A DNA stretch of 64,000 nt from an uncultured virus (IMG/VR IMGVR_UViG_3300044996_000468). Its lineage: Duplodnaviria > Heunggongvirae > Uroviricota > Caudoviricetes. The stretch lies in the IMG/VR virus record IMGVR_UViG_3300044996_000468, positions 1 to 64,000 of that record; one strand, 5' to 3'. Positions 13,568 through 64,000 of the stretch are shown piece by piece. The position numbers and the translations under genes were made by a program. The notes under the pieces are model-generated. The model worked only from the letters and a program-made list of their open reading frames with translations. It was not told where the DNA came from and searched no databases. Position 1 is the stretch's first letter. Every line of letters begins with the position of its first letter.

Positions 13568-13576
13568 AGGGACCCC

Positions 13577-13969
13577 ATGAGCAAGAACGCAGGACAACTT
13601 CTTTGGAACCGCCAACGGATCAATCTCCCGGCGGGAACGACGCAAGTCAACACCGGTCTCACCCAGATCAACCGGTCGTTCGAAAGCGAGTCGATCGGCG
13701 AACCACCACTCGGTGTGACTGCGGCGCCTCCAGGGCCGGCGCCTGGCACGTTGCCGGCATCACGTGTCCAGGTCATCCCGCTCGCTCAGACGGACAAGTG
13801 GGCCAACGTCACCCACGGCGAGCCGTACCTCAACCCGGCGACGAACACGATTTTCGTCGCGTTTCAGAACGCCTCTGAGATTGGCATCACCGATCTCAAC
13901 GTCCTGTTCTGGTTGCCGCACTCGATGATCGGTCCGGGCGACGCCGATACGTACAACCTCGCGGACTAG
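13577..13969 (+). CDS. small beta-rich protein, paralog A (putative structural)
   Basis: Clear paralog of 17894..18289 (shared NRSFESESIGEPPLGVT and GPGDADTYN). Confidence 0.8.
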   Translation: MSKNAGQLLWNRQRINLPAGTTQVNTGLTQINRSFESESIGEPPLGVTAAPPGPAPGTLPASRVQVIPLAQTDKWANVTHGEPYLNPATNTIFVAFQNASEIGITDLNVLFWLPHSMIGPGDADTYNLAD

Positions 13970-17893: not shown

Positions 17894-18289
17894 CTACTGG
17901 CCGGGGTTGTACGTGTCCGCGTCGCCGGGTCCCACGATCGAGTGTGGATCCCAGAAGAGCACGTTCGGTGTCACTGTCACCGGTGGCGAGCTGGTGTTGG
18001 TGAACGTGACCTTTACGGTGTTGGTCGCTGGGTCGACGAACGGCTCGCCGTGGGTGATGCCTGTCCAGTCCGATAGCGGCGCCATCGGGATCACCTGGAT
18101 ACGCGACGCCGGAAGGGTACCGTCGGCAGGTCCCGGTGGTGCCACTGTCACACCGAGAGGCGGTTCGCCGATCGACTCGCTCTCGAACGACCTGTTGACC
18201 TGGGTGAGACCGGTGTCGATGGTCGTCACGCCGCCCGCCAGCGTCATGCGCTGACGATTCCAGAGAAGCTGTCCTGCCTTCTTGCTCAT
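17894..18289 (-). CDS. small beta-rich protein, paralog B (putative structural)
   Basis: Paralog of 13577..13969 in inverted orientation; AGGAG RBS. Confidence 0.8.
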   Translation of the reverse strand: MSKKAGQLLWNRQRMTLAGGVTTIDTGLTQVNRSFESESIGEPPLGVTVAPPGPADGTLPASRIQVIPMAPLSDWTGITHGEPFVDPATNTVKVTFTNTSSPPVTVTPNVLFWDPHSIVGPGDADTYNPGQ

Positions 18290-18353
18290 GGTTTCTCCTG
18301 TGCCGTAGCCGGATCCCGCAAAATGCGGGACGAGGTTCCATGAAGCTACACCC

Positions 18354-27717: not shown

Positions 27718-29784
27718 CTATCGTGAGGCTGATGCGAGGAACTTGCCTGCGTCGGCGAGGACTTTCGAAAAGCCGACGAACGGAAGCGAACGGCGCATCA
27801 TGCCGCCGTACGACTTTGCGAGGATGCGCGTGTCGAGAAGCACGAACACACCGCGATCCGTCGTACTGCGAATCAGTCGACCGGCACCTTGCGCCAACTC
27901 GATGGCGGCGCGCGGGAAGTAGAAGTCGTCCCAGAAGGTGTCTGGGTGCTTCTGTTTCATCATGTCGACGAGCGGATCGTTGAACGATTCGAGGGGCAGC
28001 TTGTCGATCACGAGGCACGATAGTGCTTCGCCTTGAATGTCCAGCCCGACCCAAAAGCTCTTAGTCGCGAGGAGGACCGAGTCGGTCTGTTCGCGGAACA
28101 TGTGCGCGAGGGTCTTGTTGGGCGCGTCGCCCTGAACCAGCAACGGGTAGTCGATGTTGCCTTGCAACTGCTCCGCGACGTACTTCAGGCGCCGCCACGA
28201 CGTGAACAGGACGAGCGTGCGCCCTTTGCAATCACGGATGAGCGTCTTGATCGCTTCAGCGGCCTTCTGGTTGTAGATCGCGTCGTTTTCTGGAATCGGC
28301 CACGGGATGCCGAGCGGTACGATGAACTTGGCTTGTGTCGCGAAGTTGAAGGGGCTCGGTACACGCACACCGATGACGTTGGCGCCGGGGACGTTGGTGC
28401 CGCGTTGGGCGAACTGCCAGCTGTGCAGCCGGACGTCTTCGTTGCCGGCGTTGACTTTGTCGGTGCCGGGTAAAACCGCTTGGCGGACGAGGCCCAGCTC
28501 GTCGCGGATGAAGTCGAACGTTCCGCCGCTCGTCATCGTCGCAGACACGCAGATCACCGACGGGTACCGTTCGAAGACGCGCTCGGAAAGATGCTGTCCG
28601 ACGCGGTATGGGACGGCGCGAAGCCGGACGGTAGCAGCCGTGACGCGCTGATCGTCGTTTGGCTTGTCGATCCAGTACGCCGTCGTGTCGTTGAGCTGCC
28701 CTGCAAATTCCTTGATTTGGACGACGAACGTCTCAGCACGGTCGCGACAGGACTTTCGCATCGCACACGTTCCACAGAGCGCGGGCGTGTCACATCCACA
28801 GCCGCCCTGCGCAGCCCGCATCGCATCGTCAAGCACGTCGACGATTTCGATCGTCGCCACGCAATCGACTTCAGCGACGCGGGGTGATTCCATGTTGAGC
28901 GCGTAGCGCGCGACGTCTTCGAAGAAGGGGCTCGCGGTGTCGCGCAACGCCTTGGCGAGTCCGCGATCGCCGAGATACTTCGAGATGTCGGATGCGAGCT
29001 GGTTGATGTGGGTCAGGCCCAGTTCGCGACCGAAACATCGCCGCGCGATGTTGGCAGCCTCGTGAGCCTCATCGAAGATGACGGTCTGGAAGTTCGTCCA
29101 CGTCGGATCAGTTGTGTGGAGCAACTTGGAGAAGAACAGGTCGTAGTTGGCGACCACCACGGTGGCGTTCTCTGCGTTGTCGGCGGCGCGTTCGGCGAAG
29201 CACGACTCGTAGTAGGCACACGCGCGACGCCCGCAGCGTTCACCAGACACCGAGAAGACGTTCCACGTCCGTTGTGAGACAGCCGGTGGCGCCTCGGACT
29301 GATCGCCGGTAGGGGTGGCTGTTCCCCATGCGCTGAGCGCTTGCGCTTCGATGTTTCCGTCGAGATCGAGTCCCGGAATCGGTGCACCACTGTCGAACAT
29401 CGCCATCTCGCGCTGGCAGAGGTAGTTCGCACGGCCCTTGAGGAGCGCGAAACTGAAGTCAATCTCTTCGTCGGCGGCGGCGAAGGCTTTCTCGACGACC
29501 GGAAGATCCTTGTCGATCAGCTGCTCCTGCAGCGCCTTGTTCGCCGTGACGACGAGGACGCGTCGACCCTTGTGGACGGCGTGCCGGATGGCCGGAATCA
29601 AGTACGCCATCGTTTTGCCGGTTCCAGTCGGTGCTTCTCCAAGGAGAACGAGGCGACCTTCGATCGCCTCGTCGACGGCCTGTGCAAGCTGCACTTGACC
29701 TTCACGCTTGGAGTACCCCGGGATCACGGTCGCAAGCGCACCCGTGAAGTCGTCGAACATGTTGTCGATGTAGTTCGTGCTCAT
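27718..29784 (-). CDS. dinG: DinG/YoaA-family Fe-S helicase
   Basis: REGQ, EAPTGTGKT, KGRANYLC, C..C..C, DEAH, SAT, LFTS, FWVGLD, QGAGRLIRS. Confidence 0.92.
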   Translation of the reverse strand: MSTNYIDNMFDDFTGALATVIPGYSKREGQVQLAQAVDEAIEGRLVLLGEAPTGTGKTMAYLIPAIRHAVHKGRRVLVVTANKALQEQLIDKDLPVVEKAFAAADEEIDFSFALLKGRANYLCQREMAMFDSGAPIPGLDLDGNIEAQALSAWGTATPTGDQSEAPPAVSQRTWNVFSVSGERCGRRACAYYESCFAERAADNAENATVVVANYDLFFSKLLHTTDPTWTNFQTVIFDEAHEAANIARRCFGRELGLTHINQLASDISKYLGDRGLAKALRDTASPFFEDVARYALNMESPRVAEVDCVATIEIVDVLDDAMRAAQGGCGCDTPALCGTCAMRKSCRDRAETFVVQIKEFAGQLNDTTAYWIDKPNDDQRVTAATVRLRAVPYRVGQHLSERVFERYPSVICVSATMTSGGTFDFIRDELGLVRQAVLPGTDKVNAGNEDVRLHSWQFAQRGTNVPGANVIGVRVPSPFNFATQAKFIVPLGIPWPIPENDAIYNQKAAEAIKTLIRDCKGRTLVLFTSWRRLKYVAEQLQGNIDYPLLVQGDAPNKTLAHMFREQTDSVLLATKSFWVGLDIQGEALSCLVIDKLPLESFNDPLVDMMKQKHPDTFWDDFYFPRAAIELAQGAGRLIRSTTDRGVFVLLDTRILAKSYGGMMRRSLPFVGFSKVLADAGKFLASASR

Positions 29785-29798
29785 GCTGCTCCCCTAGT

Positions 29799-32700
29799 TC
29801 AGTTGACTTCCGCCCAAGTTTTTCCGGCCTTGGCGTCGACGGGAAAATTCATCTTGTTGCCGTTGTACTCGACCTCGCGCGTGAAGCACTTCACGACGAG
29901 GGCCTTGAGCAGATCCTGATCGTCTTCGTCGCACTCGAAGACTACGGCATCGTGGATCTGAAGGATCGGCCACGCGCCCTCGGGCAGGAGCGGCATGATA
30001 TCCGCGAGCCCCAGGTTGATAAGGTCAGCGCCCGACGCCTGAATCGGGAAGTTGACGACTTCGGTCAGGTCGAACTGCTTGATCGGAAAACATCGACGAC
30101 GTCCGAGGATCATGCTTCGGATCTCGCCTTGCTGATCCGCCATCCGTTGCATGTCCTGGTGCCACTTGGTGACGCCCGGCATGCGGGTCTTCATCACCTG
30201 CACCATCTTGCCGATCATGCCGATGGTGACCTGCGGGTAGTCGCGGACGACGGCCTTCCACAACGTCTCGATCGAGCCGGCGTAGAACGCGCCGTACTCC
30301 GGGCGCTTGATCAGGTCGCGGCGGACCTTGCGTTCGTCGACAGGAACCGTGTCGAAGTCCGGCCAGACGATGCGCGCGAACTCGCTATGGATGTCCTTGT
30401 CCTTGTGGAAGATGTCGAGGAGGAACGGGTCACCTGACATGAGCGCGATCAGGCGTGCTTCGAGTTGCTTCGCATCGAAAGCGACGAACGCACGCCCGTA
30501 CGGTGCGACCACCTGGCTACGGAGGTTGGGGCGTCCCTTCTTTTTGTCGGCCTTGGGCCAGTTCTGTGCTTGTGGTCCTTCGGAGCGCCATCGTCCAGTG
30601 ATGGCGTGGACGCTCCATCGTGGGTGAACACGCAGCCACGGATCGGCGAAGCCGTAACGGATCTTGCCGGGGATCGGTCGGCCTTCCTTGTCGAGGACCG
30701 GGCGATCGAGCATGCGTTCACAGAACGTCGACAGGAGCTTTGCGTTCTCGCGGTAGTTGAGGAGCGCTTGGATTTCCGGGTACTGCGAGAACGCTTCGAG
30801 GACGTCTTTCTTTGTCGAGATTCGACCACTGGCCGTCTGAAGACTGAGCGGCACACCGCAGGCCTTGAGGAAGGCCACGATGTGATCGCCCGAGTCGATC
30901 ATGAAGTTGAACTTGCTAGCCTCGATCTCGCCGAGGCGTTTCGAAATACGTTCGTCAAGATCGATCGGATCGTGCTTTCGCGTACGCCGCGCCTGTTCGA
31001 AGGCGAGCCGTTCCTTGAAGCGCGCCAGGATCGTCGGATCCTGAATTTTGTCGTCCAGCTCTTTTTTGGCCGCATCGATGTTGGCGCGGAAGCCTTTGCG
31101 GAGTTGCCCGTTGATTTCTGGATCGATCGGGACGCCCTTCATGTGCATCACGCTGGCGGCGTGCGCCATCGCGAGATCCACCTTGTAGGTCTTCTCGGCG
31201 TTCGACTCCTTGATGATGAGCGCGATCGGACCTTCGATACGTGCCGTCGCAAGCGTGTCGCGTGCGTTGTAGGGCAGCAGCTCGTCGAGCGTTCCTTGAC
31301 CATGGCGGTATTCGGCCTTCCACGGCGGAGCGGCGTAGAACTGCGTCAGGACACGCTGAAGGTTGTGTGCGAGGCCTGGGAACGCACTGTGATGCATGAG
31401 CATCGTGCAGTGGATTTCGCCGTTGATCTGAAAACCGTGACGTTCCAAGACAGGTACGTCGTAGATCCGGTTGTGGAAGATCTTGACGACGGACTCGTCG
31501 GCGAACAGTTTGTCGAGCGGTTCGAGAACCTCCGGGATGCACAGCTCCCACGCGATGCTGATCGCGCGCTCGAACGTGGCGAGCCCGAGCGCCGACATGT
31601 TGGCGTTGTAAGGTGAGAGCGCGGTGTGTTGCTTCGTGTTTTCGACGAAGGTCTCGGTGTCACACGCGAACCGACCTGAACGGTATGCGTCGACGACGAA
31701 GTCGGCGACGAGCTTCTTCGCCCGCTGCCAATCTTCTAGTTCGACCTGAATGTCGTCGGTGAACTTGATGTCGGCGCCCTGCGAGATCAGGTTCACCTTG
31801 GCCGTGTCGTAGAGCAGGTTCCAGAAGGCGAGGTCGACCGTGTGTGACCCACCACCGCCACTCGCACCGCCGCCACGAAGGATCGCAGCGGGGTGAATGC
31901 TCGGGATCACCGCACGCGTCCGTCCGCTGTTGTCGCAGTCGACCTCGTGGTACGAGCCCGCCATCTGCGTGATCGAGAACTTCTCGTTGCCAGTGAGTTG
32001 TTGGGCGGCGTGAGCCCCGAGGGCGAGGACGGGCACGCCGGGGAACTGTGCGATCTCTTGTTTGAGTCGGTCGCCACAAGCTTGACGTGCTTGCTTCTTG
32101 ATGGCGTCGGAGGCGCCGTGCGGCGGTTGGCAGTTGTGAACGACGGCTCCGGGCGTGAGGAAGTTGTGCGTGCCTTCCACTTCGAGGCAGTACACGGTCG
32201 CGCCTTCGCCTTTTCGTCGGGGGCTCGTACAGACGCTCTCGGCCTGATCGTAAAAGGCCGCTGCTGGAATGGGCTCGTATGTTTGCGGGTCGTACTTGCC
32301 GCGATCTTCAGGTCGAAGTTTGTACGCCATCACAGGTGGAACGTAAGTCGCGATCGCAGCACTGAATCGCGCAGTCCCTTCGACCGTGAATCGGATACGG
32401 CCGCGCCGAACGCGGTTTTCGAAACCGCGTGCACGTAGTACTGCAGAGGCGTGAAGAAGATCTGGTTCGGGAAAGGCGACGCCACAAATCTCGGCGAGCG
32501 GACGGTGCCCGTTGCGGATCTGCATGTACCCATCGTCTAGGTACCAGACGGCAAACAACAGCTCGTCCGCCGAAGCGAGAACAGTCGATGGGATTCGTTT
32601 CTTGCCTTCGGGGTAGAAGAGGTCGCGTGTTGCATGTCCCCATGCACCGGCAGCTGTACGGAACCCGTACTTAGCTTGCTCATTTTGTCGGGGTGGCTGT

Positions 32701-33488
32701 TGGAACAGTGACACGCCGAATTTTTTCAACACGCGCGCCTTCAGCATCGCGTACTGTTTTTGATCTTCGGCGTGGGTAACTACGAGTGAGCCCTTTGCGA
32801 GGGTTCCGTCACCGAGCAACGTTCCATAGGCAACCTGCAGTGCACGACCCGCAGGTGCCACGTCGCCGGTGGCGATCCACCCACCGTTGATATCGGCGGC
32901 GGGTCGCCAACCTTCCGGTGTCAGGACGGGATGATCTTCGGTAAGTACGGCATGCGTTCGTCCTCGGGCTCCTGCACGTTGCGCCCATCGGAACGATACG
33001 TCACGCATCTCGCGCGTTCCTCGTGGATTTCGATACCAGTTCGTAACGCGCGCTGCGATCACACTCCCTGTTGCGTCGATGGACTGTACGAGTCCGTCAT
33101 AACGGTTGGCAACGAGGTGATCGATCCGTTTCAGGGATCCGTCTGCGAGTCGAACTTGGGTGGTCCCTTCGACGCACAGCATGCTGTTCGACACCCACAA
33201 CGACTCACGTGCGATGCCGAGCCTGGAGAGCGTTTCGTTGACGAGACGACCGGAGCTGCCGACGAACGGGCGCTGCTGGATGACTTCGTTCTGGCCAGGT
33301 CCTTCGCCGACGACGATGAAGTTTGGCCGTTCCCAGCCCTCACCGAAGACAGGTTGGTTCGGTTTGCCGAACTTGCCGAATGGACAGTTTGCGCAGTCGG
33401 CGCCGTGCGCGTTGCCGCGGATTGTCTTCGGCGCGTCGTCGTCGACGAAGCGATCCTCGGACGGCATATCGGCAACGGTGAAGCTCAT
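29799..33488 (-). CDS. polA: family A DNA polymerase with N-terminal family-4 uracil-DNA glycosylase domain (SPO1-type fusion), intein-containing
   Basis: UDG: CANC, GEGPG..E, PFVGSSG, HPAAILR; exo: DTET, HNRIYD, YNARD; pol: DAKQLEAR, R...KRPEYG, QIHD; start at MSFTV by ATGA overlap. Confidence 0.93.
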   Translation of the reverse strand: MSFTVADMPSEDRFVDDDAPKTIRGNAHGADCANCPFGKFGKPNQPVFGEGWERPNFIVVGEGPGQNEVIQQRPFVGSSGRLVNETLSRLGIARESLWVSNSMLCVEGTTQVRLADGSLKRIDHLVANRYDGLVQSIDATGSVIAARVTNWYRNPRGTREMRDVSFRWAQRAGARGRTHAVLTEDHPVLTPEGWRPAADINGGWIATGDVAPAGRALQVAYGTLLGDGTLAKGSLVVTHAEDQKQYAMLKARVLKKFGVSLFQQPPRQNEQAKYGFRTAAGAWGHATRDLFYPEGKKRIPSTVLASADELLFAVWYLDDGYMQIRNGHRPLAEICGVAFPEPDLLHASAVLRARGFENRVRRGRIRFTVEGTARFSAAIATYVPPVMAYKLRPEDRGKYDPQTYEPIPAAAFYDQAESVCTSPRRKGEGATVYCLEVEGTHNFLTPGAVVHNCQPPHGASDAIKKQARQACGDRLKQEIAQFPGVPVLALGAHAAQQLTGNEKFSITQMAGSYHEVDCDNSGRTRAVIPSIHPAAILRGGGASGGGGSHTVDLAFWNLLYDTAKVNLISQGADIKFTDDIQVELEDWQRAKKLVADFVVDAYRSGRFACDTETFVENTKQHTALSPYNANMSALGLATFERAISIAWELCIPEVLEPLDKLFADESVVKIFHNRIYDVPVLERHGFQINGEIHCTMLMHHSAFPGLAHNLQRVLTQFYAAPPWKAEYRHGQGTLDELLPYNARDTLATARIEGPIALIIKESNAEKTYKVDLAMAHAASVMHMKGVPIDPEINGQLRKGFRANIDAAKKELDDKIQDPTILARFKERLAFEQARRTRKHDPIDLDERISKRLGEIEASKFNFMIDSGDHIVAFLKACGVPLSLQTASGRISTKKDVLEAFSQYPEIQALLNYRENAKLLSTFCERMLDRPVLDKEGRPIPGKIRYGFADPWLRVHPRWSVHAITGRWRSEGPQAQNWPKADKKKGRPNLRSQVVAPYGRAFVAFDAKQLEARLIALMSGDPFLLDIFHKDKDIHSEFARIVWPDFDTVPVDERKVRRDLIKRPEYGAFYAGSIETLWKAVVRDYPQVTIGMIGKMVQVMKTRMPGVTKWHQDMQRMADQQGEIRSMILGRRRCFPIKQFDLTEVVNFPIQASGADLINLGLADIMPLLPEGAWPILQIHDAVVFECDEDDQDLLKALVVKCFTREVEYNGNKMNFPVDAKAGKTWAEVN
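32133..33176 (-). mobile_element. LAGLIDADG intein (348 aa) in the UDG domain of PolA
   Basis: L|CVEGTTQV...THNFLTPGAVVHN|C; GTLLGDG and WYLDDG blocks. Confidence 0.93.
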
Positions 33489-34600
33489 GCGCGCAGTGCC
33501 TCCATGAACCACGTGAGCCACGAAGGAAGATCGACGATGGGCGCCGGAATCCAAAACGCCGGTTCACCAGAAACTTGCGTTGAAGGGGCGACTGCGATGA
33601 GGCCTCCTTCACAGAGAATTTCTAGGCCGGCCGCGAATCGTTGGCTGCGCGGGAGCCAGAGGCCGTGCGGAACGTTGTAGAAGTGCGCGCGCACGTCACC
33701 TGTCTGATGTGTCAACGTGATTGGTAGAGGCCCGTCGACAGTACTGACGGCGCGTGTGACTACGACCAAGAGTCGCGATGCTCCTCCAGTTCGAATGCCG
33801 ATGCGCGTGCTTGGTGCGTGCCTCCACATATTGGCGACGCGTTCAGGGCGACATCCAGGAAATGTGTGTGAGACGAGATGCAGTCCAAGTTGTCTACAGG
33901 TTGTTCCTTCTGAACACGTACAACCGGCCTTGCCTTGTGCTTCAGGGGTCCTGAGCGGATTCGTGAATTGTAGATCTCGCAACGGGTCAACCCAGAAGTG
34001 GTGCTGCACATACCGTTGCGCAGCTTCGGTCAAGGACACCGTGTGATTCGGAAGCCAGGACCAGTCTCGGGTCTCGTGAGGCGTTGGTGGTGGTGGTGGC
34101 ACTGCTGCGAGCAATTGTTCGGCGTCAGCCTCGCGCAGAAATTTTTCCGGGATCAGATAACACGGTCGTGCAATGTCTTCGCGCCACCAGTTCGCGTAGC
34201 GCGCCAGACGTGGCAATGTCCAACCTACGATCTCGATCGACGGACAACGGTGGGTGTTGACCAGGACGTGGGGGACATCTTCGGGATCTTGATCATGGAG
34301 TGGTAGACACCCGTTGGGATAGTTCGTCGAGCGAACACGGATCCCCCCTACAAGACCAGCTTCTGTCCGCGCCGCTTCCCAGTCGCGCAGATTGAGTGCA
34401 CCTGCCCATCCACAGTTCAGGAACTGTGCGAATGCGTACTCAGCGAGTGCACCTTGAATGTCGATCGTCTCACCGTCGGCTGTCGGCGTGACGCGCCCAT
34501 CGTTGCGACCGCCTTGACGCTGTACGCGATAGCGTGTGCGACCAACCTTGACGGCGTGCGCGACCTCGACATCAGACAGTTGAATCTGGATTCGCGTCAC
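33485..34600 (-). CDS. fusion: unknown nuclease-like N-domain plus degenerate Prim-Pol domain
   Basis: C-half CTC..C..GLH, W..APSTRIGIRTG, GGLIAVAPS...SG..W parallels 53867..55072 but lacks DxD. Confidence 0.6.
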   Translation of the reverse strand: MTRIQIQLSDVEVAHAVKVGRTRYRVQRQGGRNDGRVTPTADGETIDIQGALAEYAFAQFLNCGWAGALNLRDWEAARTEAGLVGGIRVRSTNYPNGCLPLHDQDPEDVPHVLVNTHRCPSIEIVGWTLPRLARYANWWREDIARPCYLIPEKFLREADAEQLLAAVPPPPPTPHETRDWSWLPNHTVSLTEAAQRYVQHHFWVDPLRDLQFTNPLRTPEAQGKAGCTCSEGTTCRQLGLHLVSHTFPGCRPERVANMWRHAPSTRIGIRTGGASRLLVVVTRAVSTVDGPLPITLTHQTGDVRAHFYNVPHGLWLPRSQRFAAGLEILCEGGLIAVAPSTQVSGEPAFWIPAPIVDLPSWLTWFMEALRA

Positions 34601-36934: not shown

Positions 36935-38917
36935 TTAGAAGTCGGCGTTCAGGTCGACTTCGCCTTCGACGCCCTGTTGGTACGCCGACGCACGGCGTTC
37001 GAAGAAGTTGGTCATCTCTTGGACGTCCTGCAGGTCCATGAACCCGAACGGATTCTTGACGTTGAACGTCTTGCTGTAGCCGAGCGCCGCAAGACGCTGA
37101 TCGGCGACGAACTGGAGGTACGTCACGACGTCGTTGACCGAGAGGCCGGCGACGCCACCTGCCAGGAGGTCTTCCGCGAAGGCGGCTTCGCAGTCGATAG
37201 CTTCGTCGATCATCTGTCGGACGTCGCGTTCCAGTTCGGCGTCGAACAATTCGGGTTCTTCGCGGCGGACGGTGGCGACGACCGCGAACGCGAACGTCAT
37301 GTGACAGTTGCCAGTGATCGAGACTTTGTTGTTGTAGCGCATCACAAAAGCGCCGGTTGGGACGGTTACACAGTGAACGTTCCCGTCGTATGCGACGATG
37401 TCGTCGAGGATCGACCCGCACGACACGATATCGACGTCGTGGATCCACGTACGGTACATCGTCGAGTACGTATCCGATCTGTGATCTTCTTCGATGCCGA
37501 ACGTGGCGTGTCGACCGCCTAGCGTTGCCACAGCTTGAACGACGTCGACGTTGTCGCGGAACTTGGACGAGTAGTAGATGTAGTAGCCGTCCATTGGATC
37601 GGCTGGCGTATGTCCGTCCCAGTGCCGAAGTTCTTCGACGAAGTCAGTAGCCCACTTGGTGTCGATCTTCGTCAAGTCGACCCACGTGTTCAGGTGCTTG
37701 CTGAGAGGTGTAGAAGCGGGGACGTTGATGAAGAACTCGTTCCAGCCGTTCTCGTCGCAGTCAACTTTGTACTTCCAACCGAGACGCGTGACGAGATCTG
37801 TCAATCTCGCGATTTTGCGATCACGCCGCAGAGAGAACTTCGCCGGGACCGTCCCGCAACGCTCGCCGGTATACCGCTCGCTGAGGTGCCCGTCGGCTTG
37901 GAACGCGATCAAGAAACGTTGCTCGTCGGTAAGCTCCGGTGCGACCTGTAGCGCGTGTCCTGCCACTGGAAGCTTCTTCTTGCCGTTGATCTTGAATTCA
38001 GACGCCGGCTGCTTGGACCACTGCTTCTGATAGTCCCAGCGCTGCACGATGTCGTGATCCATTGTCATCATCTGATCGACACCACCCTTGCGGTGTCGCA
38101 GATGTCGAACAGATCCTCGGTGCGGCTTGTGAAGCACCCTGAGCGGCTTCACGAATGAAATTTCATGAGTCTGAAGATCGAACTGGGCGACCTGTGTGTC
38201 TTCCGTCAGCTCACGGAAGTCGACCCAACCCTTGGGGGTTAGCACTTCGGTGCCGTCAACCATACAACTCTCATCTCTAAACACCCAGTTGGTGCCGTCG
38301 GCGAGGCCGGGCAGGAGGCCCTTCGAGCGCAGGAAGTAGACGTAGGCGAACGCGCCGAAGAAGAACAGACCTTCGATGCACGCGGCGAAGCAGATCAGAT
38401 TCGAGAGAAACTGTCGACGCTGGCGGGGCGTGCTGATCCGATCGAGCGATTGGATCGAGTCGATCCAGCGAAGACAGAAGTCAGCTTTCTGTTTGATCGA
38501 CGGGATCGTCTCGACGGCGGCGAACGCTTTCTGTCGCTCGCTGTGTTCGGGGACGTAGGTGTCGAGCAGGGTCAGATAGAACTGGACGTGGAGCGCTTCC
38601 TCGAAGAGCTGTCGCGACAAGTACATCCGCGCCTCGGGGGCGTTGACGTGCTTGTAGAGGTTCAGCACGAGGTTGTTCGCGACGATCGAGTCGCCCGTCG
38701 CGAAGAACGCGACGAGCCGTTGGATCAGGTGACGTTCAGCCGACGTCATCTTGGTGAGGTCGGCGACGTCCGTCGAGAAGTTGATCTCCTCGACGGTCCA
38801 CGTGTTCTTGATCGCCGCGCGGTACATCTCGAAGAACTGTGGATAGATCATCGGCCGCAGCGTCAGACACATCCCAGGATCGAGGAGACGCGCTGGTCGC
38901 TGCATGTCGATGTTCAC
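36935..38917 (-). CDS. nrdB: class Ia ribonucleotide reductase beta subunit, intein-containing
   Basis: W..EE, FFATGDSIV, EEALH..FY, EGLFF..AF, RDES|CH, NFFE. Confidence 0.95.
   Translation of the reverse strand: MNIDMQRPARLLDPGMCLTLRPMIYPQFFEMYRAAIKNTWTVEEINFSTDVADLTKMTSAERHLIQRLVAFFATGDSIVANNLVLNLYKHVNAPEARMYLSRQLFEEALHVQFYLTLLDTYVPEHSERQKAFAAVETIPSIKQKADFCLRWIDSIQSLDRISTPRQRRQFLSNLICFAACIEGLFFFGAFAYVYFLRSKGLLPGLADGTNWVFRDESCMVDGTEVLTPKGWVDFRELTEDTQVAQFDLQTHEISFVKPLRVLHKPHRGSVRHLRHRKGGVDQMMTMDHDIVQRWDYQKQWSKQPASEFKINGKKKLPVAGHALQVAPELTDEQRFLIAFQADGHLSERYTGERCGTVPAKFSLRRDRKIARLTDLVTRLGWKYKVDCDENGWNEFFINVPASTPLSKHLNTWVDLTKIDTKWATDFVEELRHWDGHTPADPMDGYYIYYSSKFRDNVDVVQAVATLGGRHATFGIEEDHRSDTYSTMYRTWIHDVDIVSCGSILDDIVAYDGNVHCVTVPTGAFVMRYNNKVSITGNCHMTFAFAVVATVRREEPELFDAELERDVRQMIDEAIDCEAAFAEDLLAGGVAGLSVNDVVTYLQFVADQRLAALGYSKTFNVKNPFGFMDLQDVQEMTNFFERRASAYQQGVEGEVDLNADF
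37307..38266 (-). mobile_element. LAGLIDADG intein (320 aa) in NrdB
   Basis: S|CMVDGTEVLTPKGW...VHCVTVPTG...ITGN|C; AFQADG and RHWDG blocks. Confidence 0.92.
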
Positions 38918-43109: not shown

Positions 43110-45386
43110 TTACTCGTTGGTTGAGGTCTCCGCCGAAGAAACGCCGTTTGCCGTATCGCTCGACGGCGTCGTGAGATCAAGTCCCATCTGCGACTCAGTC
43201 GCTTCCGCGATCGGTGCATCGGCAGCCTTCGCCGCCTTGGCTGCGCGCACCGCCTTCTCAAGTCTGCGAAGCGGCGTGAGCTTTTCGTTCGTCGAGCAGT
43301 GTTGAAACAACGAACACATGCCGTAACGATGGACGCAGTTGTTGCGAGCCTTCGGCCAGGTGTTCGTTGCGCGACACATCTCTTGGTACGCCGCCCACAC
43401 GCGTAGATCGTCGTCGTGGCCGCTGACGTGCCACGCTTGGGCCGGCACGATGATGCGTTGAAACTGGGGGATCTTCTGTTTGCCGACGATATTGACGATG
43501 GTGCCGCGCAGCTTGCCGTACTTCTTGTCGAGCTTGGCCTGTTTCCAGACCATGATCTGTCCCAAGATTTCGCCGTCGTTGTGCCAGCCTTCGAGAAGGT
43601 CTGCGGTGAATCGGGAGGCCGTGTTGTGGGTGATGATTCCGTTCGCGACGAAGTTGTGAACGCGCGGAACGGTGATGTCATACATCATCGCGCGACCGCT
43701 GACGACGACGTGGCTAACACGATCCCAGGTCAATTCGGCGTAGATGACGTTGTCGAATTCCTTGGATGGGCGATCGACGGCGTACTTCTTCAGCGTCTCG
43801 CGTTCGACGGCGCGATTCTTGAGCTGCTGTCGAAGGGCGCCAGGTTGATTCTCGACGGGTACGTGCAGTTTGACGTATGTCGACGGAACGTAGGCGTCGT
43901 CGCCCTGCTTGAGGCAACGAAGGACAGGGCGTACGTCGTACTTTACGAACCACACGTGCTTGTCATCGATGGCGCACAGGAAACGACGTTTGCCTTCGCG
44001 CGTGATGACTTTGGTGGTCCACACGTCGCGACGTTCGCCGTCGTACTCGACGGAAGACTCGGTGACCGAAGACGGAATGCCGCGTCGATGAAGAAGTGCT
44101 TGTACGCCCATGCACAGCTTCTCGCTACGTGAGACGTACGCGATTCGAACCTTGTCTTGTGACGGCTTGCCGTCGTTACGGTCCTCGCGGAAGAGGTCGA
44201 CACATCCGTCGGTGTTCCACAGCGCGCCGAGAAGAATGTCGACTTGACGATCAGGACAACCGAACAGCTGGTCGGGGATGAACTTGGTGGCTGCCAAGCA
44301 TTCAGAAAGGCCAAGTTCGTCGAGGAGTACCTGTGCCGGGTTGTCGGTCGCACGGGAGACAGATACCGTCGGAGCGCGTTCTTCGCTTCGAAAGAGCGTC
44401 GGCTTGGCGCCGATCGTGGCAGCGACGTCCTGGAAACGTTCAAGGATCGCCTCGTTGGTGTTTGTGAACTTGCCGTTCGTCATGCAGCCGTCGCCGAGCA
44501 TGAGACCGACGAATTCAACTTGCGCGTCGGTGAACGGACTCGGGCCGTCGTAACCGCCGGTTGACGGCGCGATCGCAACCCAGTCTTCGTGCGTTAGCGC
44601 TGCAGCAGGAACCCAACCGCGTGCGGTCAGAAACGGGTGATTGTCAGAAGTGCGCAGCCGGCGACCGGATTCCAAAACGACTTCATAGACGTCCCGGACC
44701 GACGTTGGCTCGGGAACACCTGCGCGAGTCTTGACCATCCGTCGCGTGTTCTCGTCGTAGGCCAGGACGATCGGCTCTTGCTTGCGTGCTGCTAGCTCTG
44801 CAATGGACAGCAGCTCGCCGGTGCCGTAATCGAACAGCTTCTCGTCAGCGTGGAGGCACTTGTGTTCGATGATCCACGTGCCTTCACGGATGCCCGGCTG
44901 ATCTTCGACGACGCGCGCGATCAAGTCGTACCGGCACGTATTGCCGCGATCACCCATTGCCCAGTCCTCGATCGCGATCGGGTCGAGGTAGTCGTTCGGG
45001 TAGTGATCGCGGTACGACTCGTAACACTTCCACCCGGCGAGGACGGCTTCCATGCGTGCGCCGCCTTCGATGAGCAGCTCACGACACATGTCAGGCGTGA
45101 GCTTGAGGTTCTCGTCCATCATCCACAAGTAGTGGAGCGCCATGAACGTGTGAAACGCTGAGCCGGTCTCCAGCGCCATCGCTGCTGGACCGCGCTCGCC
45201 GTCGATGTAGTTGACCTTGTAGAGATACGGACAGCGTTGGAACGTTGCGTACGACGACCAGCCGCGCCCGGATGCTCCGCCGAGGCGTTCCATCCCGAAC
45301 TTCTTGAAAATCTCTTCGAGGACGTCGTCGAGACGACGAATGTCGTCGCGCGGCATGAGGCTGATGACGGTACCGTCGACGTTCAT
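43110..45386 (-). CDS. PD-(D/E)XK Cas4/AddB-like exonuclease, intein-containing
   Basis: SSY..FQRCP, G.AFH, RYDL, IIEHK|T, Q...Y-like, C-terminal C...C..F..C. Confidence 0.85.
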   Translation of the reverse strand: MNVDGTVISLMPRDDIRRLDDVLEEIFKKFGMERLGGASGRGWSSYATFQRCPYLYKVNYIDGERGPAAMALETGSAFHTFMALHYLWMMDENLKLTPDMCRELLIEGGARMEAVLAGWKCYESYRDHYPNDYLDPIAIEDWAMGDRGNTCRYDLIARVVEDQPGIREGTWIIEHKCLHADEKLFDYGTGELLSIAELAARKQEPIVLAYDENTRRMVKTRAGVPEPTSVRDVYEVVLESGRRLRTSDNHPFLTARGWVPAAALTHEDWVAIAPSTGGYDGPSPFTDAQVEFVGLMLGDGCMTNGKFTNTNEAILERFQDVAATIGAKPTLFRSEERAPTVSVSRATDNPAQVLLDELGLSECLAATKFIPDQLFGCPDRQVDILLGALWNTDGCVDLFREDRNDGKPSQDKVRIAYVSRSEKLCMGVQALLHRRGIPSSVTESSVEYDGERRDVWTTKVITREGKRRFLCAIDDKHVWFVKYDVRPVLRCLKQGDDAYVPSTYVKLHVPVENQPGALRQQLKNRAVERETLKKYAVDRPSKEFDNVIYAELTWDRVSHVVVSGRAMMYDITVPRVHNFVANGIITHNTASRFTADLLEGWHNDGEILGQIMVWKQAKLDKKYGKLRGTIVNIVGKQKIPQFQRIIVPAQAWHVSGHDDDLRVWAAYQEMCRATNTWPKARNNCVHRYGMCSLFQHCSTNEKLTPLRRLEKAVRAAKAAKAADAPIAEATESQMGLDLTTPSSDTANGVSSAETSTNE
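43623..44858 (-). mobile_element. LAGLIDADG intein (412 aa) in the PD-(D/E)XK nuclease
   Basis: K|CLHADE...TSDNHPFLT...YDITVPRVHNFVANGIITHN|T; GLMLGDG and LWNTDG blocks. Confidence 0.93.
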
Positions 45387-60455: not shown

Positions 60456-61646
60456 CATGCTTATCCGGTTAACACCCCAAACGTGATTTAGACACATGAG
60501 TACCGTACTGACACATCAAGTCACGATCTGGATGGCAGGCGACAAGTTGTGCTGAACCTCGCGAACTGGCGTAAGTACCAGCACCTGTTTGTCCCTCCGT
60601 CCGATCGCCCGTGCATCGCTGGAGTCAGCGGTGGTTCGACGAGTGGTGTGATGGCCGCGCTGCTCTCGGCTGCCGTGCTCATGTCGTTCCAGAACACGGG
60701 CAAAGAGCACGCGCTGACTTACGAATTCCTGGAGGCGCTCGCAGATGCTATCGGTCGCGAGATTGTCTGGTTGGAGTACCGCCCGCCCGCCTCGCGCGGG
60801 GCCCCGCCTGCGGCGGCACGTTTTGCAGTCGTAACACCGCGAACCGCTGATCGTAGCGGCGGACCGTTCGAGATGATGATGATGGACGCGATCAACGCAT
60901 ATCGCGCAGCCATCGGTAAGGGGCCGATCGCGCCGTGGTGGCGCTCGCGCATCTGCACGACGTACATGAAGACGCGACTCGCGCGCCGCTACGTGGAGTC
61001 GCTTGGGTGGAACGGCCACGATGAACTAGTGGGGCTTCGTGCCGACGAGCCCGATCGTGTGGCCAAACTCCGCGTGGGCGTCCCCAAGCGAATCGGTCGC
61101 CATGCGCCGCTTAGCGTCGCTGGTTTCACGGCCAACGATGTAGCTGCGTTCTGGGGTGAGCAGTCGTTCAGGCTCAACCTGCCGCCTCACCTCGGCAACT
61201 GCACTGGATGCTTTCTAAAGGACCAGGCCGACCAAAGCCGCGCGCTCGACCAGAATGGCGACGTCGATTACTGGGCGGGTATGCAGGAGCGGCATCCGGG
61301 ATTCGGCGGCAAGAATCACCCCGGCTATCGTCGGCTCGCAGCCGAGGCGCCATCGCGTTACGCGATTGAGGCGGCACTGTTGGCCGGGCGAACGCCCGAT
61401 AACGAGAACGGTATGGAGTCTCGTCGGTTCAAGCTTGTTGTCATCCAGGAGCGCAAGCGGCTAGCCGGACAGGTGGCGCCGTTCTCGTGTGCGTGCGAGG
61501 GCTCCGACGCACTAGCGCAGATGGACGACGACGAAGAGAACGCATACATCGCATCACTACCAAGTGAGGACGCGGCATGAAGAGTGCCAATTCACAATCT
61601 AACAAGGACGGTCAGACCTGTTATGGGTGCCAACCGGATAAGCATG
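60456..61646. mobile_element. non-autonomous TIR element (mobile insertion cassette, 1191 bp) carrying a passenger gene
   Basis: TIRs CATGCTTATCCGGTTAACACCC / GGGTGCCAACCGGATAAGCATG (20/22); 8-bp TSD CCTTCTTC at 60448..60455 and 61647..61654; no transposase. Confidence 0.92.
60549..61580 (+). CDS. PAPS-reductase-like (PP-loop adenine nucleotide alpha-hydrolase) protein
   Basis: GVSGGSTS, NTGKEH..TYEF, RICT..MK, VGLRADE..R, APL, GNCTGCFLK. Confidence 0.85.
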   Translation: MLNLANWRKYQHLFVPPSDRPCIAGVSGGSTSGVMAALLSAAVLMSFQNTGKEHALTYEFLEALADAIGREIVWLEYRPPASRGAPPAAARFAVVTPRTADRSGGPFEMMMMDAINAYRAAIGKGPIAPWWRSRICTTYMKTRLARRYVESLGWNGHDELVGLRADEPDRVAKLRVGVPKRIGRHAPLSVAGFTANDVAAFWGEQSFRLNLPPHLGNCTGCFLKDQADQSRALDQNGDVDYWAGMQERHPGFGGKNHPGYRRLAAEAPSRYAIEAALLAGRTPDNENGMESRRFKLVVIQERKRLAGQVAPFSCACEGSDALAQMDDDEENAYIASLPSEDAA

Positions 61647-62454: not shown

Positions 62455-62551
62455 GGCTTGACTTGTCAGGTACATCTGCGAAACGTTCAGTTCCAGTAGA
62501 GAACGGCTTGACTCGTCGAAGTCGTGCGTGAGAGGTTCAGTTCGAGTAGAG
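62455..62551 (+). repeat. tandem imperfect 47-bp repeat, period 50 bp
   Basis: GGCTTGACTyGTC...GTTCAGTTCsAGTAGAG at 62455 and 62505; 34/47 identical. Confidence 0.8.
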
Positions 62552-62571
62552 CGCGACAATTTAGGGAGCAC

Positions 62572-64000
62572 ATGAAGAGCACGAGGCTAGGGCCTCGGTC
62601 ACTCACTGCCCGTAGGGTTCGGGACGTTGAGCGACCACTGGTCGAGGACATTCTTGCGACCGCAGATCGTGGAGCCGCTCTCGCCGTAGCGTTCGGTGCG
62701 CAGGAAACTCGCGCTGTCTGTCTTTGGTCGGATATCGGCAAGGCATCCGAGTCCTGGCAGATCCAGCAACGCGGGTCGAAGTACGGCCTACGTATTAACC
62801 ATGTTGGATTAGGCGTTTGGCACACCTTACGCGTTCCCGGCATCCCGTCCATGCAACGATTGGCAATCGCTGTCGCGATCGCCGGTCACCATGGTGGTCT
62901 CCCAGACGCAAGTTACCTACCTGCACTGGCAGATGAGAGCGCACCGCTTCGAGAGGCGCTGATCGATCTTCCCGACGAGATCACTGCCCTTCCCGTAATG
63001 CGACAACGTCGGTTCGCAAACGCGACGCATTTGTTCATGTTCACGCAGATGATCGCGTCGGCACACATCGACGCCGACTGGCAAAACGCGGCGGAATGGG
63101 AGCGAGAAGTCTGTGGTGCGCCCATCACACGACCTTCGTATCCGAGCATCGAACAGCTCTACCGACAGTTGGAGAGCGTGTGCAGTGACACACGGCTCGA
63201 TCGGAGCGATCTCCGTACTGCGTTCCGTTTGCACTATCTAAGTGCCGCTGAACGTGTTCCGGGGTTCTATTCGTTCTCAGCCCCTCTCGGTGCGTTCAAC
63301 GTCGAAGCCTTGGCGCTGTACGGGCTGGCACACGCGCGACGCAACGCACGAGAAAGGGTCATCCTTGTCTGTTCGACGCAGATGATGTTCGAAGAGTGCA
63401 CAGACAAGCTTCGTGCCTCTCTCGGAGACGCATTCGCAGAGCCCGCCGCGTTCGACGTCCAAAGTTGTGGGTTCAGTCCTCGTGTCGAGACCTGGGACGC
63501 TCCTGTCGTCGTTACCGCGCTTCGAGATTTCTTAGGGCTCCTCTTTGACAATCGTCCAGCGTCTCTGCGACGTTTCCATCACCTCGCACGCGCAGTGGTC
63601 GTTGTCGTCGACGCACAACAGATCCCGTTGCCCGTGCGCACGTTGACCCGCGAAGCGTTACAAGTACTCGTTGATCATTTCCACGCTTCGGTGTCGCTCG
63701 TGTCGGCGGTCCCCTACGGAGTCGCGGAGGACGATCGACCAGAGTTGTTGGGGCCAAAGGACGCCTTCAACACGGTCTACGGAGAGATTCAGACCACATG
63801 GCCCGATCATCACGAACCGTTACCCTCCGCCGTACAGATCGCACACGAGATCGCCGAGCACGCTGAGTGTTTGACGGTTCTCCAAGATGCATCCAGATTG
63901 CGTGAGGTAGCACAAGCGATGAGGGCGTACGTCCCCGACGTCCAGGTCACTGCCGTGTCGTCTCGGATGTGTGCTGAACATCGTCGTGCGGTGATACGTA
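62572..64000 (+). CDS. cas3: type I-C Cas3 homolog (HD + SF2 helicase) with degenerate catalytic motifs; runs off the window
   Basis: Translated by hand, 476 open codons: WSDIGK, INH, AIAGHHGGLPD, IDADW, GFYSFSAPLGAFN, ETWDAPVVVT, LFDNRP..LRRFHHLA, VDAQQIP, SSRMCAEHR. Confidence 0.88.
   Translation, partial: MKSTRLGPRSLTARRVRDVERPLVEDILATADRGAALAVAFGAQETRAVCLWSDIGKASESWQIQQRGSKYGLRINHVGLGVWHTLRVPGIPSMQRLAIAVAIAGHHGGLPDASYLPALADESAPLREALIDLPDEITALPVMRQRRFANATHLFMFTQMIASAHIDADWQNAAEWEREVCGAPITRPSYPSIEQLYRQLESVCSDTRLDRSDLRTAFRLHYLSAAERVPGFYSFSAPLGAFNVEALALYGLAHARRNARERVILVCSTQMMFEECTDKLRASLGDAFAEPAAFDVQSCGFSPRVETWDAPVVVTALRDFLGLLFDNRPASLRRFHHLARAVVVVVDAQQIPLPVRTLTREALQVLVDHFHASVSLVSAVPYGVAEDDRPELLGPKDAFNTVYGEIQTTWPDHHEPLPSAVQIAHEIAEHAECLTVLQDASRLREVAQAMRAYVPDVQVTAVSSRMCAEHRRAVIR

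Follow-up and report, generated by a model that had tools for sequence, protein, structure and literature searches.

A type I-C Cas3 homologue with replaced ATPase and HD motifs heads a Cascade operon in a jumbo phage

What role can a Cas3 protein play in a phage when the residues that would make it a helicase and a nuclease have been replaced? This question is raised by a gene at the end of a 64,000-nucleotide stretch of an uncultured Caudoviricetes virus (IMG/VR record IMGVR_UViG_3300044996_000468), hereafter the window, which comprises bases 1–64000 of a 78,626-bp viral record; downstream coordinates follow the numbering of the same contig. The gene lies on the plus strand at 62572..64000 in the window and continues to 64677 on the contig, and its designation as a dead Cas3 draws on its open reading frame (ORF), hidden Markov model matches, fold and motif losses. 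The initial annotation had described an uninterrupted ORF, collinear with Cas3, that runs off the window edge, and had proposed that its product is a decoy that occupies Cascade and excludes host Cas3. The ORF proved to be real. Within the window, the frame is open to the end (64000) from a GTG at 62524 or an ATG at 62572, and in the full record it stops at base 64677, yielding 717 aa from the GTG or 701 aa from the ATG. The frameshift or stop just downstream of the window that would have pointed to a decaying gene is absent, the frame being intact to 64677. As set out below, the gene opens a type I-C effector operon of the phage itself, in which its product may serve as a non-enzymatic subunit.

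Fold and catalytic motifs of the Cas3-like protein

The 701-aa protein is a full-length homologue of type I-C Cas3. In the 717-aa numbering from the GTG, its HD domain spans approximately residues 35–190, RecA1 240–400, RecA2 420–590 and the C-terminal domain 600–717. Homology of the HD domain to Cas3c was detected with TIGR01596 (45.7–46.3 bits, above the cut-off of 43.45) and with PF18019, which scored 26.1 against a cut-off of 23.1 on the full protein and 18.7, under the cut-off, on the fragment truncated by the window. When the full protein was compared with Pfam and NCBIfam, no helicase model was significant, and only Cas3 HD models exceeded their curated cut-offs. The superfamily 2 (SF2) helicase core, formed by RecA1 and RecA2, and the C-terminal domain are present and collinear with those of I-C Cas3. 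A comparison with I-C Cas3 profiles, proposed as a check in the initial annotation, gave an end-to-end match to the PADLOC Cas3c model (residues 12–697, E 3.7e-60). By sequence, the closest solved structures are the type I-C Cas3 proteins 8zns_A (E 7.6e-15) and 8g9u_P (E 5e-12). An AlphaFold2 model built from a 61-sequence alignment was confident over 717 residues, with a predicted local distance difference test score (pLDDT) of 86.2 and a predicted template modelling score of 0.90. Its best PDB matches in Foldseek were again I-C Cas3, namely 8zns (TM 0.78) and 8g9u_P (TM 0.69), followed by I-E Cas3. The phage protein therefore resembles canonical I-C Cas3 (8zns, 8g9u chain P) in domain order, fold and best family match, and also in its operon position upstream of cas5c-cas8c-cas7c. 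It differs from the canonical proteins in having substitutions in every ATPase motif and at two HD histidines, a shorter loop at the anchor-loop position and a clade-specific insertion in its C-terminal domain; identity is only about 20–25%.

To compare the catalytic residues, 162 identifiers were fetched, 17 sequences shorter than 600 aa were dropped, and three close relatives described below were set aside from the remaining 145, leaving 142 Cas3 homologues. Aligned to these, the phage protein has replacements in ATPase motifs I, Ia, II, III, V and VI alike. In Walker A, where the homologues have Thr (142/142), Gly (139/142), Lys (142/142) and a second Thr (141/142), the phage protein has Leu, Phe, Asn and Val; in Walker B, the Asp and Glu found in all 142 are Val and Asp. 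The motif Ia Pro and Gln, likewise conserved in 142/142, are replaced by Ser and Glu, and the motif III Thr (141/142) by Val. Motif V has lost its Thr (142/142) to Ala, its Glu (138/142) to Gly, its Gly (142/142) to Ala and its Asp (138/142) to Ala, while the Gln, Gly, Asn and Arg of motif VI, each conserved in 141 of 142 homologues, have become Ala, Cys, Phe and Gly. Thus, none of the ATP-binding and hydrolysis motifs that characterize Cas3c (Walker A GK[ST], Walker B DE, III, V and VI) is present. The HD site is also incomplete relative to the conserved Cas3c set. The motif I His (H in 135/142, with seven gaps) is Asp, and the His of the HD dyad in motif II (H in 139/142, with three gaps) is Ser; the other six of the eight conserved residues checked, D70, H93, H122, H123, D183 and D185, are retained.

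These comparisons confirm the catalytic degeneracy that had been read from the window and extend it to motifs Ia, V and VI. The altered motifs that had been quoted (EDI, SDIGK, PLGAFNV, VDAQ and SAV) all occur in the translation, as do the structural motifs said to be kept (AIAGHHGGLPD, IDAD, WDAPVVVT, LFDNRPASLRRFHHLA and SSRMCAEHR). By the established biochemistry of SF2 helicases and HD nucleases, changes of this kind abolish activity. We infer that the phage protein is incapable of the ATP binding and hydrolysis seen in canonical SF2 helicases, its catalytic death being a prediction from these motifs. With two HD histidines replaced, the protein probably makes no nicks either.

The degeneracy is shared. 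An exhaustive phmmer search of 1.84 billion representative sequences returned 3,273 hits, among which three metagenomic relatives stand apart: P0017 (694 aa, 39% identity to the query, E 2.5e-120), P0018 (705 aa, 36%, E 1.4e-92) and P0019 (660 aa, 31%, E 4.8e-43). The next-best matches are ordinary Cas3 proteins, at best about 1e-31. In a FastTree phylogeny of 146 sequences, the query and these three proteins are monophyletic (support 1.0) and sit on a long stem; within the clade, a grouping of the query with P0017 and P0018 has support of 0.999, with no resolved order among the three. The Walker A GK[ST] signature is absent from all four proteins, which have PLGAFNV, PSSIVDA, PASVDRN and PHGASKI in its place, and motifs III, V and VI are degenerate throughout; P0019 retains the Walker A Lys and the Walker B DE pair. 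At the HD site, P0018 and P0019 keep both histidines and indeed all eight residues checked. The query and P0017 share Asp and Ser at the two His positions, and P0017 carries a third change, H122T. All four frames are uninterrupted over 660–717 aa and share 100 invariant columns, and a clade-specific insertion in the C-terminal domain, at approximately residues 612–640, contains a partly invariant GEA.LVPVV stretch.

This distribution suggests that the loss of the motor is old and common to the whole clade, and that the loss of the HD histidines, confined to the query and P0017, probably came later. Because four frames of 660–717 codons are unlikely to have stayed open by chance at 31–39% identity, the clade proteins appear to have been kept under purifying selection for a non-catalytic function. 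The earlier proposal of selection for a non-catalytic role is thus supported by an intact four-member clade without GK[ST] and by the confident I-C Cas3 fold. Scans of metagenome_contigs, viral_contigs and genome_contigs with the clade alignment recovered only the same phage and ordinary Cas3, and P0017 and P0019 had no match in viral_contigs. Searches of the phages collection with Cas3 and Cas7 returned remote fragments only.

Intact I-C Cas3 genes also occur in viral sequences. Two other viral contigs, L018 and L019 (111 and 118 kb), which represent another phage lineage, carry a canonical I-C set of cas7, cas8c, cas5c and an intact Cas3 that keeps the GIGKT, DESQ and HD motifs. Location in a phage is therefore, on its own, no explanation of degeneracy.

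The operon, its array and the phage genome

The initial annotation had stated that the window contains no further cas gene and no array. Taken literally this is true, but it misleads, since cas5c begins 805 bases past the window end. The sequence downstream, to which that annotation had pointed as a check, supplies the rest of the ORF and a set of type I-C effector genes adjoining it, all on the plus strand. The cas5c gene (64805–65440, 211 aa) was identified with TIGR01876 (112.4 bits against a cut-off of 85) and PADLOC. It is followed by cas8c (65430–67442, 670 aa), with 199.6 bits to PF09709 against a cut-off of 27 and 158 bits to TIGR01863, below its cut-off of 218.65. A circularly permuted cas7c (67527–68708, 393 aa) comes next, scoring 181.7 bits to PF05107 and 176.7 to the NCBIfam equivalog, below the cut-off of 182.25. 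A CRISPR array at 68888–72361, with about 45 units of a 36-nt repeat and unique spacers, closes the series. The order is thus cas3-like gene, cas5c, cas8c, permuted cas7c and array. The four cas genes share a strand and are separated by short gaps or overlap slightly, none of their ORFs is interrupted, and the array comes directly after them.

The permutation of Cas7c is evident from phmmer alignments to 8g9s_B and 7kha_B, in which residues 57–248 correspond to canonical residues 84–283 and residues 286–371 to canonical residues 2–93. The C-terminal two thirds therefore come first and the N-terminal third after, between a Lys-rich N-terminus of GN repeats and an acidic tail. Eight metagenomic clusters (P0167–P0174; 351–370 aa, 42–47% identity) cover 77–84% of the protein in the same order and have both tails; ordinary Cas7c proteins cover at most about 53% of it. 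Among the loci in which both Cas7 halves were detectable, the permuted layout occurs in two, both from this phage, and the canonical one in the other seven, and in an alignment scan of 49 loci the permuted ones were the phage's own only. The structural model of Cas7c, moderately confident at a pLDDT of 60.9, could be matched to I-C Cas7 along roughly 200 columns. Cas8c, whose C-terminal tail consists of AAQ repeats and an acidic run, has three relatives (P0287–P0289) at 43–44% identity, one of them on a 359-kb contig. The longest contigs of the Cas7 relative P0171 and the Cas8c relative P0287 are both 18,543 in length, which is the only link between such genes outside this phage, and the Cas8c relative P0288 had no match in viral_contigs. 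Taken together, these sequence families give Cas7c, Cas8c and the dead Cas3 the look of a distinct, maintained I-C variant. When reads were placed, the low-complexity tails of the two effector genes (contig 67300–67442 and 67527–67700) attracted many unrelated metagenome contigs.

In the array, a search with the 3' end of the repeat gave 46 matches, one of which was an overlap artefact, hence the count of about 45 units. There are 26 well-formed 36-nt repeats in 18 distinct sequences, an unusual degree of heterogeneity. Their 9-bp hairpin is paired in 93.8% of cells across the 18 distinct repeats, and variation falls mostly in the loop and in one pair that occurs as U-A, C-G and U-G. The repeats end in a GAAAC-type 3' handle, which we take to resemble that of published I-C repeats. 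All spacers are different, with no mutual similarity, and within viral_contigs the repeat pattern was found in this phage only. Judged by its repeats, the pattern of constraint is compatible with production of CRISPR RNA (crRNA). The array looks old, partly eroded and not homogenised by adaptation.

The operon belongs to a jumbo phage. The record shares sequence with a longer, 221,422-bp record of this phage (CheckV 100% complete) and spans the junction between that record's end and its start, from which a self-closing genome of about 221 kb follows. Window genes of the phage encode a DNA polymerase, a ribonucleotide reductase, helicases, a primase and a terminase. The whole genome has one Cas3-like gene and one array. 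Searches for cas1, cas2 and cas4, with positive controls in reference genomes, found none in either phage record, so the cas4-cas1-cas2 adaptation module of type I-C is missing, and no further Cas effector was detected when 40 ORFs of 330 aa or more were compared with the PADLOC models. The phage population is clonal: a third contig of the same phage is 99.986% identical over 14.7 kb, contigs from four lake-water runs carry the same sequence unchanged, and at least 76% of sampled words are present in 11 lake-water metagenome runs, with no RNA data set among those listed. A terminase search for relatives of the phage retrieved only two unannotated fragments.

Possible roles of a non-enzymatic Cas3

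Our preferred reading, to which we assign a probability of roughly 0.45, is that the dead Cas3 partners the phage's own variant Cascade as a non-enzymatic subunit in a system that binds or silences its targets. A Cascade of Cas5c, Cas8c, Cas7c and crRNA would bind DNA targets, and the dead Cas3 would dock on the R-loop complex as a passive subunit, whether clamp, roadblock or adaptor. In the absence of a motor, the target DNA would be neither reeled in nor shredded, and targets would be silenced or blocked instead. A passive subunit is favoured because the phage has kept the gene as the first of a maintained Cascade operon. A more specific version is more tentative: a natural I-C lineage with a dead Cas3 may have lost first the motor and then the HD histidines, and the inactive subunit may lock a Cascade with permuted Cas7 on R-loops, creating a programmable repressor of host or rival genes.

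The recruitment of Cas3 has been described for a solved I-C complex. In the N. lactamica I-C system, Cas8c recruits Cas3 only to full R-loops; the HD domain of Cas3 touches the Cas8 wedge and recruit loop, and an anchor loop of its helicase reaches the N-terminal domain of Cas8 (bioRxiv 10.1101/2023.08.05.552134). In the same system, the nick in the non-target strand is ATP-independent and processive degradation is ATP-dependent (bioRxiv 10.1101/2023.08.05.552134). Binding-only CRISPR systems of phages and plasmids provide precedents for the proposed outcome (PMC7162821, PMC11656645). Among them is the "type I-C variant" reported from huge phages by Al-Shayeb et al. 2020 (PMC7162821), which, like the present system, resides in a huge phage, has neither Cas1 nor Cas2, encodes a Cas5d-like Cas5, is devoid of Cas6 and is proposed to work by means other than canonical interference. 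As described there, it has an "unidentified helicase instead of Cas3" alongside a second system, CasPhi, and on that description we set it apart from the phage studied here, whose Cas3 is recognisable by homology and includes both an HD domain and a dead motor, and in which no second array was found. Type IV-A systems with CasDinG, type V-M systems with Cas12m and the Cas3-less type I CRISPR-associated transposons (CASTs) are also mobile-element-borne, also lack an adaptation module, and also show no evident target degradation, with silencing or competition proposed as their function (PMC11656645, PMC10910872). These systems delete Cas3 or use an active helicase (DinG); the phage keeps an inactive full-length Cas3. 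Furthermore, the Csf effectors and adjacent DinG of type IV-A are not found at this locus, the effector genes being those of type I-C. Related cases include an incomplete I-C system with a Cas8-Cas5 fusion, no Cas3 and possible DNA binding, and HNH variants with progressive disappearance of cas3 (PMC10910872). Where type I systems are known to have abandoned target destruction (CASTs, HNH variants and some phage systems), Cas3 was lost outright.

If the repressor version of this reading is correct, this would be the first type I system to silence by means of a retained, inactivated Cas3 instead of a deleted one. A search confined to one literature library found neither a retained inactivated Cas3 in an I-C operon nor a permuted Cas7c. 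A folded dead Cas3 lineage that is retained would imply a structural role of Cas3 on Cascade worth selecting for. The clade would offer a natural series that separates recruitment, nicking and translocation, from motor-dead proteins with an intact HD site to motor-dead proteins with a replaced one. The permuted Cas7c and a large heterogeneous array without adaptation genes would define a compact, distinct I-C variant in jumbo phages, and binding without cutting would make it a natural multi-subunit scaffold for CRISPR interference (CRISPRi). The locus also bears on a question posed in PMC11656645, the rarity with which viruses recruit Cas proteins as inhibitors.

Several observations weigh against this reading. 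Hairpin covariation in the repeats is no greater than in shuffled controls, and conservation of the 3' handle is partly built in, as the repeat 3' end was the selection criterion. The array is partly degenerate, with 26 of about 45 units well formed and the others shifted or degenerate, and apparent spacer lengths range from 12 to 119 nt by the parsing used. The spacers had no match in the phages and plasmids collections or in about 1 Mb of other loci, and self-matches in the phage genome did not extend beyond 16 nt. The combination of a dead Cas3 with a permuted Cas7 is documented for this phage only. Moreover, the GC content at third codon positions (GC3) of the cas3-like gene, 0.62, is the lowest of ten phage genes measured (0.68–0.84 in the others, with cas7c at 0.84, similar to the ribonucleotide reductase gene), as would fit a weakly expressed gene or a relaxation of codon selection. 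Finally, the Asp that replaces the HD motif I His could still bind a metal.

This last point bears on the rival that survives best, although it is itself unlikely, in which the protein is a nick-only effector that docks and then makes a single cut in the displaced strand with its Asp/Ser-altered HD site, without any shredding powered by ATP. I-C Cas3 does nick the non-target strand without ATP (bioRxiv 10.1101/2023.08.05.552134), six of the eight HD residues are kept, and the motif I replacement is by another metal-binding residue. A nickase stage is plausible for the clade, since P0018 and P0019 keep all eight HD residues, and these two HD-intact relatives may be nick-only forms. The phage protein itself fits less well: the dyad His, never substituted among the 142 homologues, is Ser, and its nearest counterpart, P0017, bears the further change of H122 to Thr. 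Mutation of the HD dyad His in Cas3 is known to abolish nuclease activity.

The original decoy proposal, in which the dead Cas3 acts as a dominant negative that fills the docking site of a host I-C Cascade and excludes host Cas3, finds support in its call for a maintained non-catalytic role; its stand-alone premise is false, as the gene heads a cas3-cas5c-cas8c-cas7c-array operon. We consider a decoy role possible but less likely, indeed quite improbable, and not the simplest reading, though it might add to a role on the phage's own Cascade. In its favour, the protein is intact, predicted to fold and enzymatically degenerate. Cross-binding is conceivable because the interface residues of Cas3 and Cas8c are conserved among I-C systems (bioRxiv 10.1101/2023.08.05.552134), and inactivated phage-borne Cas homologues, including a dead-RuvC Cas9 and Cas4, have been proposed as inhibitors (PMC11656645, PMC10910872). 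However, Cas proteins are reported to be rarely recruited as anti-CRISPRs (Acrs) (PMC11656645), and the "biomimicry" Acr is defined in the account in PMC10910872 as a stand-alone Cas homologue away from cas genes and arrays, whereas this gene opens a complete Cascade operon with an array. The Acrs known to act at Cas3 recruitment, such as AcrIF3, a mimic of a Cas8f domain (PMC11656645), could likewise disturb the handshake between Cascade and Cas3, but those described are small, unrelated to Cas3, and bind Cas3 or Cascade, in contrast to a 701-aa Cas3 homologue in its own operon. The docking surface also appears altered. The loop after motif III, at the anchor-loop position, is 12–16 aa long in the clade, whereas its median length among the 142 homologues is 21 and only six of those have a loop of 13 aa or less; its aromatic tip is variable among the four clade proteins. 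The shortened loop suggests that the contact between Cas3 and Cascade was remodelled together with the variant Cas8c, and cross-binding to a canonical host Cascade is therefore less plausible.

Equally improbable, in our judgement, is that the locus is the decaying remnant of an acquired I-C system whose frame is still open merely for lack of time. The degenerate and irregular array units, the low GC3 of the cas3-like gene, the missing adaptation genes and the failure to find a spacer target in the collections, the phage's own genome or the other loci searched would all fit such erosion. Against it, all four cas ORFs are intact, as are all four members of a dead Cas3 clade at 31–39% identity. 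Cas7c and Cas8c belong to conserved variant families, the Cas3-like fold is modelled confidently along its length, and the sequence recurs unchanged in the four lake-water runs and extensively in the 11 runs mentioned above.

The least probable reading, that the dead Cas3 on Cascade is an adaptor recruiting a trans-acting phage or host helicase or nuclease, can draw on the conserved insertion at residues 612–640 and on a phage YoaA/DinG-family helicase (27718–29784, minus strand) that matches the PADLOC type IV-A DinG model (E 2.1e-109), but this helicase scores best with YoaA/DinG repair-helicase models, with a weak Csf4 match (E 4.7e-26) far below cut-off, it adjoins the DNA polymerase gene 33 kb from the cas operon, and no candidate effector gene lies within the operon.

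Gene start and other features of the phage genome

The start of the cas3-like gene is likely the ATG at 62572, giving a gene of 62572–64677 and 701 aa. This start is preferred because a Shine-Dalgarno-like AGGGAG (62563..62568, plus strand) lies 3 nt before it, because the protein collection contains a 701-aa version (P0166), and because the alignments of the clade relatives begin at about residue 35–45. A shorter database gene call of 608 aa, P0001 (from M110), was rejected for its late start. Just upstream, two plus-strand copies of a 17-nt motif, GTTCAGTTC[C/G]AGTAGAG, occur 50 nt apart at 62485–62501 and 62535–62551, and a search allowing up to two mismatches found only these two in the whole 221-kb genome. 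The pair is a possible operator or promoter element.

The cas operon is preceded at a distance of 1 kb by a gene in the same orientation (60549–61580, plus strand) for a PAPS-reductase/SspD-like PP-loop protein, which matches phrog_424 (E 7e-31) and scores below the cut-off for PF01507. A CysH-like protein of the PAPS-reductase superfamily is known to accompany type IV-B CRISPR systems (PMC11656645). The YoaA/DinG-family helicase was considered as a CasDinG and rejected, given its best NCBIfam match to YoaA and the weak Csf4 score. The neighbouring DNA polymerase gene (29799–33554, minus strand) contains a LAGLIDADG homing-endonuclease segment, and motifs of an intein N- and C-terminus are found in a replicative-helicase-like gene (43110–45386, minus strand). 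The ribonucleotide reductase small-subunit gene (36935–38917, minus strand) has a large extra segment. Downstream of the array, at contig positions of about 75016–75154, an ORF contains a tandem repeat of 111 nt, or 37 aa, in which the motif CPAGQHLFTFPWGV recurs; the 221-kb phage record has one copy fewer than the present one. A pair of inverted repeats of about 390 bp, 72% identical, lies at 13575–13961 and 17902–18291.

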